DNA from: Candidatus Multivoradales bacterium
GTDB taxonomy: Bacteria > Acidobacteriota > Thermoanaerobaculia > Multivoradales > Multivoraceae
Assembly (NCBI GenBank): GCA_965223325.1
Contig: CBDCWI010000002.1
Span: 4,384,001-4,448,000, forward strand
Reading direction: 5' to 3'
DNA: 64,000 nt
Position numbers and translations under genes: made by a program. This document shows positions 12,675 to 18,595 of this stretch, piece after piece. The notes beneath the pieces were generated by a model that ran no database searches, had not been told where the DNA came from, and was given only the letters and a program-made list of their open reading frames with translations. How positions within the stretch are numbered: position 1 is the stretch's first letter; every line of letters starts with the position of its first letter.

Positions 12675-13595
12675 TCAGGCGGCCTTTGAGAGCTTCCACT
12701 CTGAACGGATCTGAGCGGGCGTCAGGTAGCCGTGCTTCTCGACCAGCCAGTTCTGGTTGTACTTCGCCTTGAAGTCGAGCAACGCGAGACGCAGGTCTTC
12801 GACGGTGTCGAATCTCTTCACCCAGAGCAGCTGCTCCTTCAGGGTTCGGATGAAGCGCTCGGCGACACCGTTGCCTTCCGGAGCCCGCACGAAGCTCGGC
12901 GACGAGCAGATGCCCAGAAAGTCGATCTCCTGCTGGAAGTCTCGGCTGGCGTACGCGCTGCCCCAGTCGTGGCGCAGGCCCAGGCCCAGCGCGACGCCCT
13001 GATCGGGCTCGCCGAAGTGCTCACGAACGCCCTGGCGCACAGGCTCGAGAGCCTCGAAGCGATTCCCCGACCTCGAGGCGTGGATCCCGATGCACTCGCT
13101 GGTGCAGTGATCCACGGCGACGAAGATCCAGGCCAGGCCTTCCTCTCTCGTCCAGGTCATCGTTGCGTCGGTGCCCCACATCAGATCGGGCTCTGGCATC
13201 GTGATCGTCCCGTCGTGGACCCGAGGGCCACGCTCGCGACCCACGCGAGTAGGTGCAAGAAGCGAGTTCTCGCGCATCAGGCGTAGCACTCGCTCTCGAC
13301 CCACGTGGACGTCGCGTGCCCTCAGGCGAGCCCTCACCTTGCGATGCCCTTCGCCACGCAAGCCGGTCTCCTGCTCGAGCTCGCGCACGACCTCTTGGAT
13401 CATGGCCACCAGCTCCTGATCCGAGACCGCCGTCTTCGGGCCGGTCTTGCGCTTCTCGATCCCGCAAGACTCGCGGCGCTTGCGCGCGGCGTAGAAGCCA
13501 GACCGGGCAACCTCCCAGAGACGACAGACCCGTGATATGCCGTAGCGGATTCCTGTGGAGGGAGAGGGTGCGGCACTCACTTCCTCGACCTCCAT
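12675..13595 (-). CDS. IS3-family transposase OrfB (DDE integrase core)
   Basis: WGTDAT (D), LRHDWGSAY (D), GNGVAERFIRTLKE (E); the start may instead be GTG at 13580 overlapping the orfA stop. Confidence 0.9.
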   Translation of the reverse strand: MEVEEVSAAPSPSTGIRYGISRVCRLWEVARSGFYAARKRRESCGIEKRKTGPKTAVSDQELVAMIQEVVRELEQETGLRGEGHRKVRARLRARDVHVGRERVLRLMRENSLLAPTRVGRERGPRVHDGTITMPEPDLMWGTDATMTWTREEGLAWIFVAVDHCTSECIGIHASRSGNRFEALEPVRQGVREHFGEPDQGVALGLGLRHDWGSAYASRDFQQEIDFLGICSSPSFVRAPEGNGVAERFIRTLKEQLLWVKRFDTVEDLRLALLDFKAKYNQNWLVEKHGYLTPAQIRSEWKLSKAA

Positions 13596-13924
13596 CCAAG
13601 AAAAGGCTTCTCGCCCTCCAAGCGATGGATCTTCTCGAACAGAAGCTCCTGATCCATCGTCAGTTCACCGATCTTCGCCTGCAGCCGCCGCTTGTCCTCG
13701 ACAAGAGACTCGACCACCGGATCCTCGGTACGGGCTTTCAAGCCCTCCTCACCTGCGCTCAGGAAGGACTCGCGCCACTCGCTCAGACGAGCCACCGTCA
13801 GGCCGGTCTCGCGCGACACCTCGTCAAGCGACTCGCCGCGAAGAAGACGCAGGACCACAGAGGCCTTGCGCTTTGCGGACCAACGGCCCTTCGTCTTCGG
13901 AGCTCTTCGTTTCGTCTTCGACAT
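13577..13924 (-). CDS. IS3-family transposase OrfA (HTH)
   Basis: RWSAKRKASVVLRLLRGESLDEVSRETG HTH followed by coiled coil LQAKIGELTMDQELL; GGAGG RBS. Confidence 0.88.
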   Translation of the reverse strand: MSKTKRRAPKTKGRWSAKRKASVVLRLLRGESLDEVSRETGLTVARLSEWRESFLSAGEEGLKARTEDPVVESLVEDKRRLQAKIGELTMDQELLFEKIHRLEGEKPFLGWRSRK

Positions 13925-13984: not shown

Positions 13985-14434
13985 GAGGCTCTCGCTGCCA
14001 AACAGCAGGCCAAAGGCCACACCCGATAGTAGATAGGGCAAGACGCCAAGGATGAATGCAGTGGGCACACGCTGCCAGAACTCTATGTAGCCCATAACGT
14101 TCTTTGGGTCGTCGCCGTCACGGGCCATCAAGATCCCTATGGCCATCGAGATCAAGGAAAAGAGAAGGCCGAGGAGGACTGAGCGATCCCAGCGAAGCGG
14201 ACGCTGGAAGACCAATCGACAAAGAACACCCAACAGAACGAGGCAAGCAAACACGGGAATCGCCAGGTAGACCGCGATGCCAACCAGAAGTGCCAATCGT
14301 CCCAAGGAGGGGAGCGCACCACCGCCAGCGATCGCGCCACCTACTCCGACCAAGGTGAAGGCAGCGACGAAAGACAGCGTCGCCGCGATTGAGGATCGCC
14401 AGATCTTGGCTCGCGACGGTTGTGGAGTATTCAT
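13985..14434 (-). CDS. Hypothetical membrane protein (cassette gene), 3' end interrupted by the IS3
   Basis: MNTPQPSRAKIWRSS... with about four TM segments; GTTGGAG core-like site 10 nt upstream; the frame runs into the IS end and stops at 13955. Confidence 0.6.
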
Positions 14435-14447
14435 TACGCACGACTCC

Positions 14448-14549
14448 AACGAGGAAGGCCTGCCCGAGCCCTTCTGCCTTGTCTTCGTAGTACTCCGAAG
14501 CGTCGGCGAGCTCGCGGTCGGCAAGCGGATCAACCCTTACGTTCTTCAA
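14448..14549 (-). pseudogene. Truncated RelE/ParE-family toxin
   Basis: MKNVRVDPLADRELADASEYYEDKAEGLGQAFL is a typical ParE/RelE N-terminus; the resemblance stops at the GTTGGAG site. Confidence 0.7.
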
Positions 14550-14781
14550 GCCTGCGGCGAAGATCGGCGAGGACCTTCTCGGCCGGGATCAGCTCGACTT
14601 CGCCGGCATCGATCTGCCTGATTCGCTCGCGAATCTCGGCGGCCCAGAGCCGTTCGATCTCTTCGGCGTCGATGCCGTGATCGTCCTCGAGGCTACGGAT
14701 CAACAGGGCTGCCAGCTCTGCGCGGAGGCGGGGCTCCAGCTCAAGTGCTGCTCTCTCGACATCGGGAGGTGCGACGGCCAT
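14530..14781 (-). CDS. Addiction-module antitoxin (TIGR02574-like)
   Basis: ALELEPRLRAELAALLIRSL...IERLWAAEIRERIRQIDAGEVELIPAEKV; overlaps the toxin start; TACAAT -10 box 7 nt upstream of the ATG. Confidence 0.85.
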   Translation of the reverse strand: MAVAPPDVERAALELEPRLRAELAALLIRSLEDDHGIDAEEIERLWAAEIRERIRQIDAGEVELIPAEKVLADLRRRLEERKG

Positions 14782-14810
14782 GCCCCGTATTGTAACGCGT
14801 CGCCCGCGCT

Positions 14811-14890
14811 GGCTAACGGACGAAGCTCACTCGCCGGAACCCGGAGGCCGCGAAGCGGCTGAGGGTTCCGGTCGATGTGCAGCTGTTTGA
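14811..14890 (-). other. attC site, larger part (remainder at ~16492-16500), split by the IS110 element
   Basis: Plus strand GGCTAAC-GGACGA-AGCTCAC...CCGGAACCC...GGGTTCCGG...GTGCAGCT; the missing GTTAGGC box lies just beyond the far IS end. Confidence 0.75.
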
Positions 14891-16491
14891 AGATCATTGA
14901 GGTCCCCTGGCGAGCTACCCACGCGGTAGCTTGCGAGCGGTAAAACAGAAACTCTTTTCAAGGAGACCTCGATGCGATTCTACAGCCGCCGCCACCGGCA
15001 CACCTGCGGTGTCGATCTACACGCCCGCAAGATGTACCTCTGCGTCCTCGACGGGAACTGCGAGAAGATCTACCACCGAAACATCCCCGCTCGGCCCGAC
15101 GCCTTCCTCGAGGCCATCGAACCCTTCCGAGACGATCTGGTCGTGGGTGTCGAGTGCATGTTCTCCTGGTACTGGCTCGCCGACCTCTGCGCCGAGGAGG
15201 GAATCGAATTCGTGCTTGGCCACGCCCTCTACATGAGCGCGATCCACGGCACCAAGGCCAAGAACGACAAGGTCGATTCCTACAAGCTCGCCGCCCTCCT
15301 ACGAGGCGGGACCTTTCCAATGGCCTACACCTATCCCAAGAAGATGAGAGCCGCGAGAGATCTCCTGCGCAGGCGCCAGTACTTCACACGCAAGCGCGCC
15401 GAGCTCTTCGTCCACATCCGCACCTCGAACACTCAGTACAACTGCGACGCCACCCTCGGCAGGATCGCCCGACCGTCGGACCACACGGATCTCCTCCATC
15501 ACTTCGATGATCCGTCAGCGAAGAAAAGTATCGACGCCAACCAGCGACTCATCGCTGCCTTCGACGAGGTCATCTCCGATGTCGAGAAGCACCTCCTCGA
15601 TCTGGCCAAGGACCACGAGCCCACCGTGCTCTCTCGCCTCACGTCGATCCCCGGCGTCGGTCCCATCCTCGGCATGACGATGCTGTACGAGATCGAAGAC
15701 ATCTCGCGATTTCCGACCGGTGCAGCACTTTGCTTCCTATGCCCGGCTGATCCGCCCACAGCACGAGTCCGCAGGCAAGCGAACCGGAAGCGGCCGCCAC
15801 AAGATCGGCAACCACCATCTCAAGTGGGCCTTCTCCGAAGCCGCCGTGCTCTTCGCCCAGCGCCAGGCTCACGGCAAGAAGCTCCTCGAGCGTCTCAAGC
15901 GCAAGCACGGCAAGACCAAGGCCTACGCTGTTCTGCGTCACAAACTCGGCCGTGCCGTTTACTTCATGCTCAAGAACAACGAAGCCTTCCACCTCCCGAC
16001 CTTCATGAACGCCTGACTCCGAGTCGGAAGCCTCGAGCCCTCCGCATAACTGGAACCACACGGCCCGATCTCATCCTTGGCGCTTCATTGGAGTCCCGGC
16101 TCCTGGTGCTTCGACACCCAACGCGCCCTGAGACCAACTGAGCCGGCAACCCGCGTGGTTGAATCGACGGGGCTTCCACTCACCTTCCAGCATTCGGTCG
16201 ATCTCGACCTCTGCCCCTCACCCGAGCCAGGCAACCAACTCCGGCGCGCTCCCGGGCGTGACCAGCACGGTTTGAATCGGACGGTACGAGGGCACCGATG
16301 TGTTTCTGGTCCGCTGGCCTAGGCCAGCAGTCGTCGCGATAGCGAGGACAGAGGCCCAATAGGTGTTTGGTGCAGAGGCTTCGCCTCGCACCCACTCTGA
16401 AACCAAAGTCAGAATTCGAGACTGATCGAAAACCGCCACGGACCTCGTCCGCTAGGAGACGTTTGCCTCTTGACGTCAGGGGACCTCATAG
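14891..16491 (+). mobile_element. IS110 family, IS1111-type element inserted in attC
   Basis: Sub-terminal 12-bp IR TGAGGTCCCCTG (14898-14909) / CAGGGGACCTCA (16477-16488); ~460-bp 3' non-coding region; no target duplication; ends are approximate. Confidence 0.82.
14972..16016 (+). pseudogene. IS110-family transposase with a +1 frameshift near 15720 (mutation or sequencing error)
   Basis: RuvC-like DEDD: GVDLH, VGVE, KNDKVD; SIPGVGPI; the frame continues as (V)QHFASYARL..HESAGK..GNHHLKWAFSEAA in ORF 15720-16016. Confidence 0.85.
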
Positions 16492-16494
16492 GTG

Positions 16495-17010
16495 TTAGGC
16501 GGTGTTCGGCGATGAGGCGACAGCATGGGTGACATCGCGTAACCGCCGCAGAAGCATGACTCCTAGGACTCCAACAACTGGCGAGGTTAGGAGGCCAGGG
16601 AAGTAGCCCTCAGTGAGAATCGACAACGCTGGGTGAGCGACGCCGTTCACGGCACACCCGATACCCAGGAACCATAGTGGAAACAAGGAGGCGCGACTGT
16701 GCGCGGCCAGACCCCAAGCGCTGATGCCCCAGATAGTGAGCCACGCGACATTGAACGACACGAAGAACTGAAGCGGCATAGGTGGAAGGCCGAACAGAGC
16801 CGGAAGCCGCTCGTGAAGGCCCGCTGAGAGCTCTTCGACGAAGTGTCCCGCCTGAAAGAGAATGGCGACCAGCACGGTCTGAACCGCACCCCGGATGTGC
16901 GTCCTGCTCTCATCGGCCCATCCTCGGGTGAGGGTTAGGTATAGAGCGATCACACCGGCGGCACCGAGAACCACCGCGCTTGGTACCATGCTGCGGAACT
17001 CGTCATTCAT
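16495..17010 (-). CDS. HXXEE-domain membrane protein (gene cassette)
   Basis: HFVEE motif, NGVAH, GYFPGLLTS; the stop TAA lies inside the GCCTAAC inverse core site. Confidence 0.75.
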   Translation of the reverse strand: MNDEFRSMVPSAVVLGAAGVIALYLTLTRGWADESRTHIRGAVQTVLVAILFQAGHFVEELSAGLHERLPALFGLPPMPLQFFVSFNVAWLTIWGISAWGLAAHSRASLFPLWFLGIGCAVNGVAHPALSILTEGYFPGLLTSPVVGVLGVMLLRRLRDVTHAVASSPNTA

Positions 17011-17461
17011 CTGAGTCAGTCTCGTGTCCGCCTAACGGACGAAGGTGAGCTGCGGGAACCCCGAGCGAGCAAAGCGAGCGCGGGTTCACGTCAGCTCGAC
17101 CTTTTCGTTGGGCTGCGCCCGTCTCGCTCCCAGAAGCGCCACCATGGTGGCGCGCAGGACGCCACTCTCGACCGAGTTCGGAGAGTCGCGGATGGTCTGG
17201 GAAGTGGGTCATGACGACCTGCGCCCATCGATCGAATTCATCCCGACGCATTCGGTACATCGGATGTGGCTGCTGGAAGAACGAGGGCGGAGACTTCTGC
17301 AGAACCCTAAAGCCCGGACCGTTCTTTCCGCATGCTGGGCAAGAGTAGGCCCGGACATCGTAAGGCTCGAACACACCGTCGATTCCGCGATAGTCGTGGT
17401 CAATCTCCCAGTGGGACGCACCGCAAGTACACTCTAGCTCGACGAGCAACGCAGGAGTCAT
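17003..17461 (-). CDS. Hypothetical protein with CxC and CxxC motifs (gene cassette)
   Basis: MTPALLVELECTCGASHWEID...YSCPACG; GAGGAGG RBS; the ORF reads through the downstream attC. Confidence 0.6.
   Translation of the reverse strand: MTPALLVELECTCGASHWEIDHDYRGIDGVFEPYDVRAYSCPACGKNGPGFRVLQKSPPSFFQQPHPMYRMRRDEFDRWAQVVMTHFPDHPRLSELGREWRPARHHGGASGSETGAAQRKGRADVNPRSLCSLGVPAAHLRPLGGHETDSDE
17030..17113 (-). other. attC site (84 bp)
   Basis: Plus strand GCCTAAC-GGACG-AAGGTGAGCTG...CAGCTCGACCTT-TTC-GTTGGGC; palindrome with an extrahelical base; lies between cassette genes. Confidence 0.88.
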
Positions 17462-17479
17462 GGTCCCTCCTCGTAGTCG

Positions 17480-17562
17480 GCCCAACGGACGAGGGTGAGC
17501 TGCGTGAACCCGAGCGAGCGAAGCGAGCGCGGGTTCACGTCTGCTCGACCCAGTTGTTGGGG
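17480..17562 (-). other. attC site (83 bp)
   Basis: Plus strand GCCCAAC...GGGTGAGCTGCGTGAACCCG...CGGGTTCACGTCTGCTCGACCC...GTTGGGG; nearly identical to the 17030 site. Confidence 0.88.
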
Positions 17563-18017
17563 GGCGTACCTCGGACCGCTGGCATCTCCGAGACCGCAGC
17601 GTGACTAAGATCGCCGTCTAGCACGGCCTCGATCTTCTCAACGAAGGCTACGAGATAGGTGACTTCGACGGGTTCGGTGATTCGCATCCCGCGAGTCTCG
17701 AAGCGAGCGTTCAACGATTCGGGTGGGATGCTGTCACCTAATGAGTGTAGCCAGGACACGTAGCCCGTGAGGAACTCGCGGAAGCAGTTGCGCTCCGTGT
17801 CGCTGAGAAGGTGACCGCTGAGGTCGATATCGCTACACCCGTTGCCATGGGCGACACGATGCTCCTGCCAGTACGACGACCACTCTACGAGCCATCGCTC
17901 CTGAGCGAACTTGGCGTCTTGGGCCAAGAACTCCGGAGCTAGATGCATGAACAGGATCTGCTCCCAGTCGTGTGCGTGAGCCCAGCACTTGCCGTAGTCG
18001 ATCGACGACCAGCTCAC
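17535..18017 (-). CDS. Hypothetical protein (first gene cassette)
   Basis: GTG start with GAGG RBS inferred inside track ORF 17535-18128; the stop falls within attC. Confidence 0.55.
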   Translation of the reverse strand: MSWSSIDYGKCWAHAHDWEQILFMHLAPEFLAQDAKFAQERWLVEWSSYWQEHRVAHGNGCSDIDLSGHLLSDTERNCFREFLTGYVSWLHSLGDSIPPESLNARFETRGMRITEPVEVTYLVAFVEKIEAVLDGDLSHAAVSEMPAVRGTPPNNWVEQT

Positions 18018-18070
18018 GACGACCTCGCGTCGAGCAAAGCGGATGAGTGCACGGACTTTCGCATCAAGCC

Positions 18071-18100
18071 CTCCAACAGTGTTATTCAATGGACCACAAA
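18071..18100 (-). other. attI-like site at the head of the cassette array
   Basis: Minus strand TGGTCCATTGAATAACACTGTTGGAG: a GTT core preceded by an AT-rich L-box-like stretch, with no attC palindrome; TACAAT at 18130-18135 may be a Pc -10. Confidence 0.45.
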
Positions 18101-18595
18101 CAGCGAACACCGCTGCTCTCGTCCACACAATTGTACCGCTGGCGTCTGGCGACGATCGCTCGGAAAGCCGGGCGGCATTGCACTTCGGGTCCTGGGTTCG
18201 AGATTCCGGCGGTTGGAAAGGCGGACCATCTCGTCGGCCTTTGCTGATCGGAGGTCTGAAAGGTGGAACCCTGACGCGGGGGAGTCCGAGCGCGTCCCCG
18301 TGCAGGCCACGGTGTTCTGGGCGTTCGTTGATTGGGTGGCCGGCAGAATGTGGAGCATGGGCTCCACATAACCCGACCCGGACTGCGCGGGGATCGGACG
18401 TAGAGGCTCCGTAATGGAGACCGCCGCGACTGAGGCCTAACGGCCCGGATGCGCCCGCCCGCTTCTCCGTGACGGGTGCGCACGCTCAGGGGCTCGGGAG
18501 CGCCGCGCGATCTACCGCTGAGCGCACACTGACTCGGGCGAACGCCTCATTCGAGTCCCTGCGCCGCGCCCGGGCAAGGTCCTCTCGCCTCTGAG

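Follow-up and report, generated by a model that had tools for sequence, protein, structure and literature searches.

A decayed, probably RNA-guided IS1111-family insertion sequence in an integron attC site, with a conserved 3' RNA that copies the right junction

Insertion sequences (IS) of the IS1111 family that target integron attC sites were reportedly described by Tetu and Holmes in 2008 and by Post and Hall in 2009. In Pseudomonas integrons, Tetu and Holmes are said to have followed these IS1111-attC elements through a cycle of invasion, expansion, and extinction, and to have described their decay and the right-end footprints within cassette arrays. We analyzed such an element in a 64,000-nucleotide stretch of the genome of Candidatus Multivoradales bacterium (GCA_965223325.1, contig CBDCWI010000002.1, positions 4,384,001 to 4,448,000), hereafter the window, whose numbering is used throughout. 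The part 14811–16500 holds what is very probably a decayed, RNA-guided IS1111-family insertion sequence specific for integron attC. This kind of element is already known—attC-targeting IS1111 elements since 2008–2009, their guide RNAs since 2024—and no new principle is involved; a shifted crossover point and a long handshake are the features worth specialist attention.

The seekRNAs of the attC-targeting ISKpn4 and ISPst6 (EF648212.1, 1889–3601) are reported to co-purify with their transposases, and those of ISKpn4, ISPst6, and ISPa25 to contain two target matches, in the 5'-to-3' order top-strand match, bottom-strand match (Siddiquee et al. 2024, PMC11187229). Table 1 of a review gives the targets as CGGCTTGAA*CGAATTGTTAG for ISKpn4, CGATTTGAA*CGCATTGTTAG for ISPst6, and GACCTTGAG*CGACTTGTTAG for ISPa25 (PMC13604230). 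Insertions of ISPa21 and ISPst6 are described as "near the 5'-end" and on the antisense strand of attC (PMC3001079). Bridge RNAs of IS1111 elements were predicted in the right end, often with a multi-loop (Durrant et al. 2024, PMC11208160). In IS621, the right-target guide, core, and handshake guide (RTG-core-HSG) are stated to pair with the junction of left donor, core, and right target (LD-core-RT) and to be complementary to its top strand (Hiraizumi et al. 2024, PMC11208158).

To delimit the insertion sequence of the window, four full copies, flanks included, were set against two sister attCs that are uninterrupted and read across the site (...AGCTGGTTGTTGTG...). It is 1,605 bp long and occupies 14888–16492 (plus strand) or, equally, 14890–16494, because the dinucleotide TG is present at both junctions (14888–14889 and 16493–16494), only one copy being owned by the IS; this shared TG is the core, as in other IS110-family elements. 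A blastn search with the attC arm left of the IS returned five matches: the arm itself, the attC of copy c2, the two uninterrupted sister attCs, and one unrelated match of 22 nt. The left arms were 90–96% identical in one other interrupted and the two uninterrupted attCs. As the initial annotation of this stretch had claimed, the sequence places the element inside an attC, parting the box GTTAGGC (16494–16500) from the rest of the palindrome (14812–14887). The 12-bp sub-terminal inverted repeats claimed there were found as a pair of 15 nt with one mismatch (93% complementary, outer 12 nt perfect), the left one at 14898–14912 and the right one at 16474–16488, both given on the plus strand. The left repeat is preceded by a terminal extension (14890–14897, plus strand), and the right repeat is followed by another (16489–16492). 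With the ends set by empty sites, these extensions measure 8–10 nt on the left and 4–6 nt on the right, longer than the 7 and 3 bp published for the IS1111 family, whose sub-terminal inverted repeats are given as about 11–13 bp. The non-coding stretch between 16017 and the IS end is also close to its earlier description (about 460 nt): it comprises about 476 nt after the transposase stop, compared with 82 nt before the start codon.

The larger part of the interrupted attC (14812–14887, minus strand) contains, in canonical minus-strand orientation, the spacer and L'' through L' to R', where R' is the reverse complement of 14812–14818. The rest, the R'' core site (16495–16500, minus strand), reads GCCTAAC together with G16494. 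Cassette ORF 16495–17010 is located on the minus strand, and its TAA stop falls inside this box (16494–16500). The next minus-strand ORF, 14530–14781 (PF09720 antitoxin family), begins 31 nt past the other end of the attC. The bottom strand of an attC can be assigned by the extrahelical-base rule. In the folded sister attC, single-base bulges were located on the 3' arm of the strand that corresponds to the plus strand of the window; by this rule, the plus strand is the attC bottom strand. The strands of the cassette ORFs and the bulge positions set the orientation of the attC, and GTTAGGC therefore complements the R'' (5') core site. The attC spacer lies on one side of the IS and R'' on the other, and the IS runs antisense to the cassettes. 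In line with site-specific insertion near the attC 5' end, 7/7 copies or right-end remnants of this genome and 41 distinct right flanks adjoin TTRGG.

A transposase pseudogene with a DEDD RuvC-like domain and a PF02371 domain was identified at 14972–16016 (plus strand) as two ORFs (14972–15721 and 15720–16016). PF01548 (E 1.4e-12) and both halves of PF02371 were distributed over these two ORFs. The 320-residue open frame of sister copy c4 (P0001) matched NF033542, "IS110 family RNA-guided transposase", with 179.2 bits at a cut-off of 140. Such an arrangement of a DEDD RuvC-like N-terminal domain and a C-terminal PF02371 domain, followed by a long non-coding region, is that of the IS1111 family, which belongs to the IS110 family of ISfinder. 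More particularly, the IS1111-type transposase, sub-terminal inverted repeats, and long 3' non-coding region are shared with the IS1111-attC group (ISPst6, ISPa21, ISKpn4, and the more distant ISPa25). That group is likewise described as inserting close to the attC 5' end, in antisense orientation relative to the cassettes (PMC3001079).

A search with P0001 as the query gave 133 relatives in species-representative genomes, of which 80 (48–72% identity) were kept. Almost all of these were from metagenome-assembled genomes of many phyla, labelled as Acidobacteriota, Desulfobacterota-type, Planctomycetota, Nitrospirota, Gammaproteobacteria, and others. The best plasmid matches, 45–51% identical, were from the marine or environmental Manganitrophus, Vibrio, Alteromonas, and Pseudoalteromonas, while the abundant elements of Klebsiella and E. 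coli plasmids were about 22% identical; the plasmid matches H15 and H3 were labelled just "IS110 family transposase". Where both ends could be called, relatives shared the architecture T, TG-ATACT..., left repeat, ..., right repeat, ATAAG-TG, TTRGG. The right flanks at 41 distinct sites had T in the first (41/41) and second (41/41) positions, followed by A (23) or G (10), G (26) or T (11), G (26), and C (20) or T (15); this consensus is the attC box. The left flanks were variable save for T at −1 (34/40) and A at −7 (31/40), the latter within a CTTGA-like motif.

A motif xATAxG-TG-TTTGGTGCAG, allowing up to 2 mismatches, was present downstream of the gene for the transposase in 55 of the 80 relatives. 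Thirty-three distinct examples of it were aligned with MAFFT (alignment A1), and a covariance model, R1, was built from this alignment and one named hairpin; alignment A2 was fitted to R1. A further MAFFT alignment, A3, contained 24 of the 33 sequences with both conserved blocks; mis-anchored, truncated, atypical, or duplicate loci (L023, L033, L074, L088, L024, L062, L046, L040, L089) were left out. In 463 kb, R1 gave 74 matches at E values up to 0.01. Its single match in the window was 16340–16427 (60.6 bits, E 1.4e-11), and it matched the 6.69 Mb genome exactly seven times, always at IS copies. R1 was found at 61 of the 80 relative loci, including the 33 from which the model had been built, and additionally in one Vibrio campbellii plasmid element; a Pseudomonas plasmid element with 33% identity gave no match. 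At least 7 of the 19 R1-negative loci had almost no sequence past the gene. The module occurred on a single strand and, where the transposase gene is present, in the orientation of that gene. Together with the conserved blocks of relatives, these data delimit a conserved structured RNA module at 16266–16427 (plus strand, covariance-model core 16340–16427), a candidate long seekRNA or bridge RNA.

Helix P_in (16369–16392, plus strand) consists of 16369–16373 paired with 16388–16392 and a cap hairpin (16375–16387). In alignment A1, 79.5% of its cells were paired against at most 51.7% when the strands were slid, with changes on both sides in 4/8 pairs; in the model-fitted A2, the values were 82.4%, at most 40.5%, and 8/8, and 0/500 shuffles scored as high. 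The 5' strands of two more helices are located at 16302–16311 (plus strand): P2 pairs 16302–16306 with 16399–16403, and H1 pairs 16308–16311 with 16353–16356, enclosing two variable hairpins (16312–16352). In A3, H1 was paired in 94.8% of the cells, with all 4/4 pairs changed on both sides, and P2 in 75.7% despite a register problem of one column. Taken together, H1 and P2 were 84.4% paired against at most 60.2% when slid, and their covariation score of 0.322 (versus 0.147) was reached by 0/500 shuffles. Independently of any alignment, the P2 5-mer of a sequence was fully Watson–Crick paired with its own partner in 13/24 cases, compared with 6/334 cross pairs. The single-sequence fold of 16266–16427 was stabler than 200/200 shuffles (z = −3.75). 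P_in, H1, and P2 are predicted to form a three-way junction. Folding and aligning the 3' regions of homologous elements, as the initial annotation had proposed, thus yielded a conserved structured RNA with compensatory changes. No Rfam family reached its gathering score anywhere in the window. An outer stem around the guide loop, CUGA/UCAG, was considered and dropped, since by eye only about half of the sequences in A1 pair there.

The strand between H1 and P_in (16357–16372, plus strand) is the proposed guide, based on its covariation with the right end and on the logo of the 41 right flanks. Its junction part (16357–16368) is CAAUAGGUGUUU and continues into the GG of P_in. Within it, ATAGG (16359–16363, plus strand) copies the last 5 nt of the IS and would be the handshake or donor part; TG (16364–16365, plus strand) corresponds to the core; and TTTGG(TG) (16366–16370, extended to 16372; plus strand) runs in the sense of the attC box TTRGG(YG). 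As a whole, the strand therefore reads as the top strand of the product right junction, namely IS end, core, and right target. The nine-nucleotide identity of ATAGGTGTT at 16359–16367 with the right junction (16488–16496), noticed in the initial annotation, holds; it belongs to a repeat family with 11/12 identical positions and marks a segment of the proposed guide. Taken alone it is suggestive, as the chance of a given 9-mer recurring in 460 nt on one strand is p ~0.002; the comparative data make it solid.

When exact 5-mers at a fixed offset were sought between the non-coding region and either junction, they were shared with the right junction only, in the same sense, in 14/17 non-redundant elements. 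For the covariation analysis, right ends were called independently, requiring the inverted repeat, the left-end motif, and a following GTT. Among the 61 R1-positive relative loci, 41 were called, 15 lacked such a repeat, and flanks were missing in 5; adding the window brought the total to 42 elements. The guide pentamer was identical to the last 5 nt of the IS in 32/42 elements and agreed at 4 of 5 positions in 6 more. Reduced to 30 distinct element types, there were 23 exact matches, compared with 5.1 on average and 12 at most after shuffling, and 0/10,000 shuffles reached 23. Eight pentamer classes were present (ATAGG, ATAAG, ATATG, ATAGA, ATATA, ACATG, AGGAG, and GTAAG), each mirrored exactly by the right end save GTAAG, which faces CTAAG. 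The core covaries as well: L044 and L068 have GG in the guide and at both junctions. Guide and right end remain identical even where transposase identity to the query copy is as low as about 50%. The closest relative, L011 (72% identity), was lost to the left-end filter, yet proved exact in a separate comparison. In tblastn, the transposase-coding match of L011 is unbroken, as is that of the L066 type. We also observed core variants (L053, L022, L083, L011) with TG in the guide yet GG at one junction, as though the target core were GG.

The initial annotation had also envisaged covariation of loop sequences with both target and donor; it was present for the donor right end and was not found for the left flank. 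Neither fixed-offset 5-mers nor all exact matches of at least 6 nt revealed a guide to the left end or left flank that consistently covaries, and this is the first of several points that weigh against the interpretation proposed here. A second, opposite-strand target match, as in ISKpn4-type seekRNAs, was not identified in the RNA, and the published order, with the top-strand match 5' of the bottom-strand one, was not reproduced. The GG(UG) of the proposed right-target guide also lies within P_in, so that pairing past UG-UUU needs this helix to open. The recognised target of about 7–8 nt seems too little for exclusive insertion into attC. RNAalifold returned no consensus pairs on A1 or A2, the helices resting on named structures and pair counts. 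Finally, 10/42 elements lack an exact pentamer match: six agree at 4 of 5 positions, and four (L016, L046, L062, L070) at no more than 2 of 5. The latter look like miscalled inverted repeats or a rearranged locus; alternative inverted-repeat calls give an exact match for L016 and L070, and L062 is rearranged.

Two conserved stretches of the module were considered in relation to the left side. The conserved yTTGA (16271–16275) matches T-TG-A of the left junction, with no covariation. The conserved single-stranded motif CAAAGTCAGA at 16404–16413 (plus strand), which is CCAAGTCAGA in relatives, is a candidate short left-target guide on account of its conservation: its CCAAG (16404–16408) is complementary to yT-TG, but no covariation with left flanks was found, and it is considered as a candidate only. 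No donor-binding loop for the left end was recognised. In the left flanks of relatives (e.g., L066, L083, L045), a (G/C)T(T/G)GA motif was observed about 7–12 nt left of the insertion point; it corresponds to the attC L'' box, the insertion place of the published ISKpn4-type elements.

An alternative explanation is that the internal ATAGG-TG-TTTGG acts as DNA, being a second right-end/target junction, an alternative end, or a transposase binding site, and that it covaries with the right end through recombination or conversion. We consider this unlikely. The DNA of the internal site can recombine with an IS end, as shown by L012, L052, and L088, in which the core forms an exact joint between a right end and the sequence normally found after the internal site. 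On the other hand, the compensatory changes in three flanking helices indicate a constraint on RNA, the module occurs on one strand, co-oriented with the transposase gene, and the published seekRNAs of the family arise from the same place. Occasional conversion is also unlikely to maintain the identity down to about 50% transposase identity.

The loci with such joints have an unusual arrangement in their own right. In L012 (3958–4036 and 1583–1661), L052 (2266–2331), and L088 (~4204), the right end (...ATAAG-TG) is joined to the sequence after the guide core and is followed by a second right end. This may be a tandem duplication of the segment from the guide to the end, or an insertion into guide-coding DNA that mimics the target. 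In L012, two copies bear the double right end, which therefore moves as a unit.

Even less probable, in our estimation, is a structured RNA without any role in targeting, such as a 3' untranslated region element or antisense regulator of transposase expression that acts, for instance, as a stabiliser or as an attenuator of cassette read-through. The position of the RNA downstream of the transposase gene, where it would be co-transcribed, and the missing opposite-strand target match are in line with such a regulator, which nevertheless would have no use for 12 nt that repeat the right junction and covary with both the end of the element and the attC box; the precedent of the family also points the other way. 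That the matches are due to chance in the decaying non-coding DNA of a dead IS is hardly credible: a lone 9-nt repeat in 1.9 kb is unremarkable, many repeats of 11–22 nt being listed, and all transposase gene copies here are broken, but the 74 model matches in independent genomes, the restriction of the seven matches in 6.69 Mb to IS copies, and the covariation statistics of helices and guide speak against it.

The guide RNA interpretation allows the following mechanism to be proposed. An active copy would excise as a circle, and its DEDD transposase would take up an RNA that is processed out of the 3' non-coding region and folded into the three-way junction of P2, H1, and P_in. The strand of 12–16 nt from H1 to P_in would represent the product right junction, with the final 5 nt of the IS, the TG core, and TTNGG of the attC box. 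Because the guide is identical in sequence to this junction, it would pair with the opposite strand, i.e., the attC top strand, of the R'' core site; after strand exchange, it would pair with the incoming right end of the IS as a long "handshake" in the IS621 sense. After recombination at the TG core, the IS would lie antisense to the cassettes, flanked by the attC spacer on one side and R'' on the other. By analogy with the seekRNAs of ISKpn4 and ISPst6 and the bridge RNA of IS621, we infer that the RNA is made, is bound by the transposase, and pairs as described.

The proposed RNA resembles those of the IS1111-attC group in its position downstream of the transposase gene and in a segment spelling ...TTGTTAG.... 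The crossover point differs: ISKpn4, ISPst6, and ISPa25 split their targets at AA*CG or AG*CG, 6–7 bp before GTT, according to the table of the review (PMC13604230). The insertion point tabulated there (between TTGAA/TTGAG and CGNNTTGTTAG) was not found at our locus, which is entered at T-TG-TTRGG, 6–7 bp nearer the box, so that the TG core takes in the G of GTT, unlike in the published attC-seekers. The difference is seen best in L083, whose site, ACTTGAGCGACT-TG-TTATGAG, is nearly the ISPa25 target, yet is cut 6–7 bp further on.

With the bridge RNA of IS621, a member of the IS110 group, the element shares a single RNA segment contiguous with the product junction LD-core-RT (RTG, core, and handshake guide, as described in the IS621 report), a shared dinucleotide core, and a DEDD/Tnp recombinase. 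Unlike in IS621, the RNA is encoded at the right end rather than the left, the segment would pair with the other DNA strand (opposite sense), the handshake is 5 nt instead of 2 nt, and the guide is located in a three-way junction, not in a simple internal loop. A separate donor-binding loop, as in IS621, was not recognised in the module; the long sub-terminal inverted repeats may take its role. Group IIC-attC introns are also mobile elements located near the attC 5' end, antisense to the cassettes (PMC3001079), but they are retroelements with a ribozyme and a reverse transcriptase and have no resemblance to the element in sequence or mechanism.

These differences raise the question of a separate, phylogenetically very broad IS1111 lineage with its own attC targeting, which docks on the R'' core site and not on the L''/spacer edge, and uses a single long product-junction guide with a 5-nt handshake in a three-way junction and little or no left-target pairing. 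We regard such a lineage as possible rather than probable; if it exists, the shape or single-strandedness of attC would have to supply the missing specificity. The crossover against the R'' core site, unlike that of the three published attC-seekers, leads to the question of how pairing over about 7–8 nt yields strict attC specificity. About 60 elements with eight covarying pentamer classes and one covarying core form a natural data set in which, by a 5-nt handshake, the lineage's guide is seen to read the product right junction; these data bear on the engineering of directionality in bridge and seek recombinases.

The initial annotation had further considered GTGCAG as a possible guide to attC. 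The hexamer is indeed identical at 16370–16375, within P_in, and at 14877–14882 in the attC. Its meaning as a guide did not stand: the identity is due to chance, because GGTGCAG is kept in relatives whatever their attC, is part of a covarying helix, and is absent from the attCs of copies c2–c4. The promoter suggested to form on joining the ends, TTGACG-N17-GATCAT, had to be given up as well, since the ends fixed by the sister attCs give TTGACG-N21-GATCAT. Its −35-like TTGACG (16470–16475, plus strand) overlaps the right sub-terminal inverted repeat, and TTGAC was found at the same distance from the IS end in 21/21 aligned relatives. The hexamer at N18 of the circle junction is GAAGAT (3/6 positions of TATAAT), and GATACT in most relatives. 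A promoter and terminator scan of 14700–16700 found none.

The genome (6.69 Mb in two contigs) contains ten matches to the element: the window copy, three long copies, three right-end fragments, and three small remnants. The long copies have 94, 93, and 92% nucleotide identity to the window copy, and all four are broken. In the window, the frame is interrupted by one extra nucleotide near 15720, a base that the three sister copies lack; contigs of other copies differ by the same one letter at 15719. Copy c3 has one in-frame stop, c2 has stops and small deletions, and c4 has a 170-bp 5' deletion. No intact paralogue of the transposase was found in the genome, other homologues being remnants at most. 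The window copy is, judging from its sequence, inactive, because its transposase is frameshifted and the genome has no intact transposase of its kind. The central proposal of the initial annotation, an IS1111-type, attC-specific element with a guide RNA in its 3' region, is thus supported by the site, the conserved structure, and the right-end covariation, save for its present tense: with this copy and every paralogue in the genome dead, the recombinase was, rather than is, programmed for attC.

Three orphan right ends have lost the transposase gene, keep the RNA module, and adjoin an attC-type box: 485 nt at C2:4171115–4171599 (L005), 292 nt at C1:2124996–2125287 (L006), and 190 nt at C2:3829797–3829986 (L007). 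R1 matched them with 47.8–59.6 bits. All 7/7 copies or right-end remnants adjoin a GTTRRRY-type box, their right ends reading ...CTCAT(A/C)GG(T/G)G, then TTNGNNGG; insertions into unrelated non-attC targets, which the initial annotation had named as the contrary case, were not seen among these seven. The left ends of 4/4 long copies read ...T, then TGAAGATCA, with c4 cut off just past this motif by its deletion. The decay of the copies fits the invasion–expansion–extinction cycle reported for IS1111-attC elements, and the four dead copies and three orphan right ends keeping the RNA module provide a worked example of how such an IS invaded, spread through, and died out in a chromosomal integron together with its satellite cassette arrays.

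Contigs of four sequencing runs covering 14500–16900 were fragmented over the repeat, and none of them bridges the IS as an empty site; joints within them, e.g., 14889 to 15060, correspond to other copies. This joint is that of copy c4 (L004, C2:3825921–3827356), visible in the contigs of run X4: the missing 170 bp reach from the left extension to codon ~30 of the transposase. Despite this deletion, c4 has the longest open frame (320 aa).

Only one integron integrase of the genome scored above the TIGR02249 cut-off (C2:3807261–3808190). It is located about 590 kb away, and three of the other IS copies are in its array. The cassette cluster of the window (14812–18441) has no integrase of its own and has an R''-like box at 18435–18441. 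Besides the interrupted attC (14812–16500), attCs of the same family were identified at 17030–17113 and 17480–17562; these two were the only family-like sites among 39 candidates of a crude attC finder, mostly false in G+C-rich DNA. The cassette ORFs of the cluster are on the minus strand, mostly without a Pfam match; a Pfam search of four neighbouring cassette ORFs gave none, and strand calling by third-position G+C content (GC3) was uninformative for cassette ORFs. On the other side of the interrupted attC, ORF 14118–14549 (minus strand) overlaps and follows the antitoxin-like PF09720 ("addiction module") ORF; it has no family match and could be its partner. An IS3-type ORF pair (HTH_Tnp_1/HTH_28, then an rve integrase core) was found at 12675–13924 (minus strand), where it borders the cassette cluster at a distance of about 0.9 kb from the attC.

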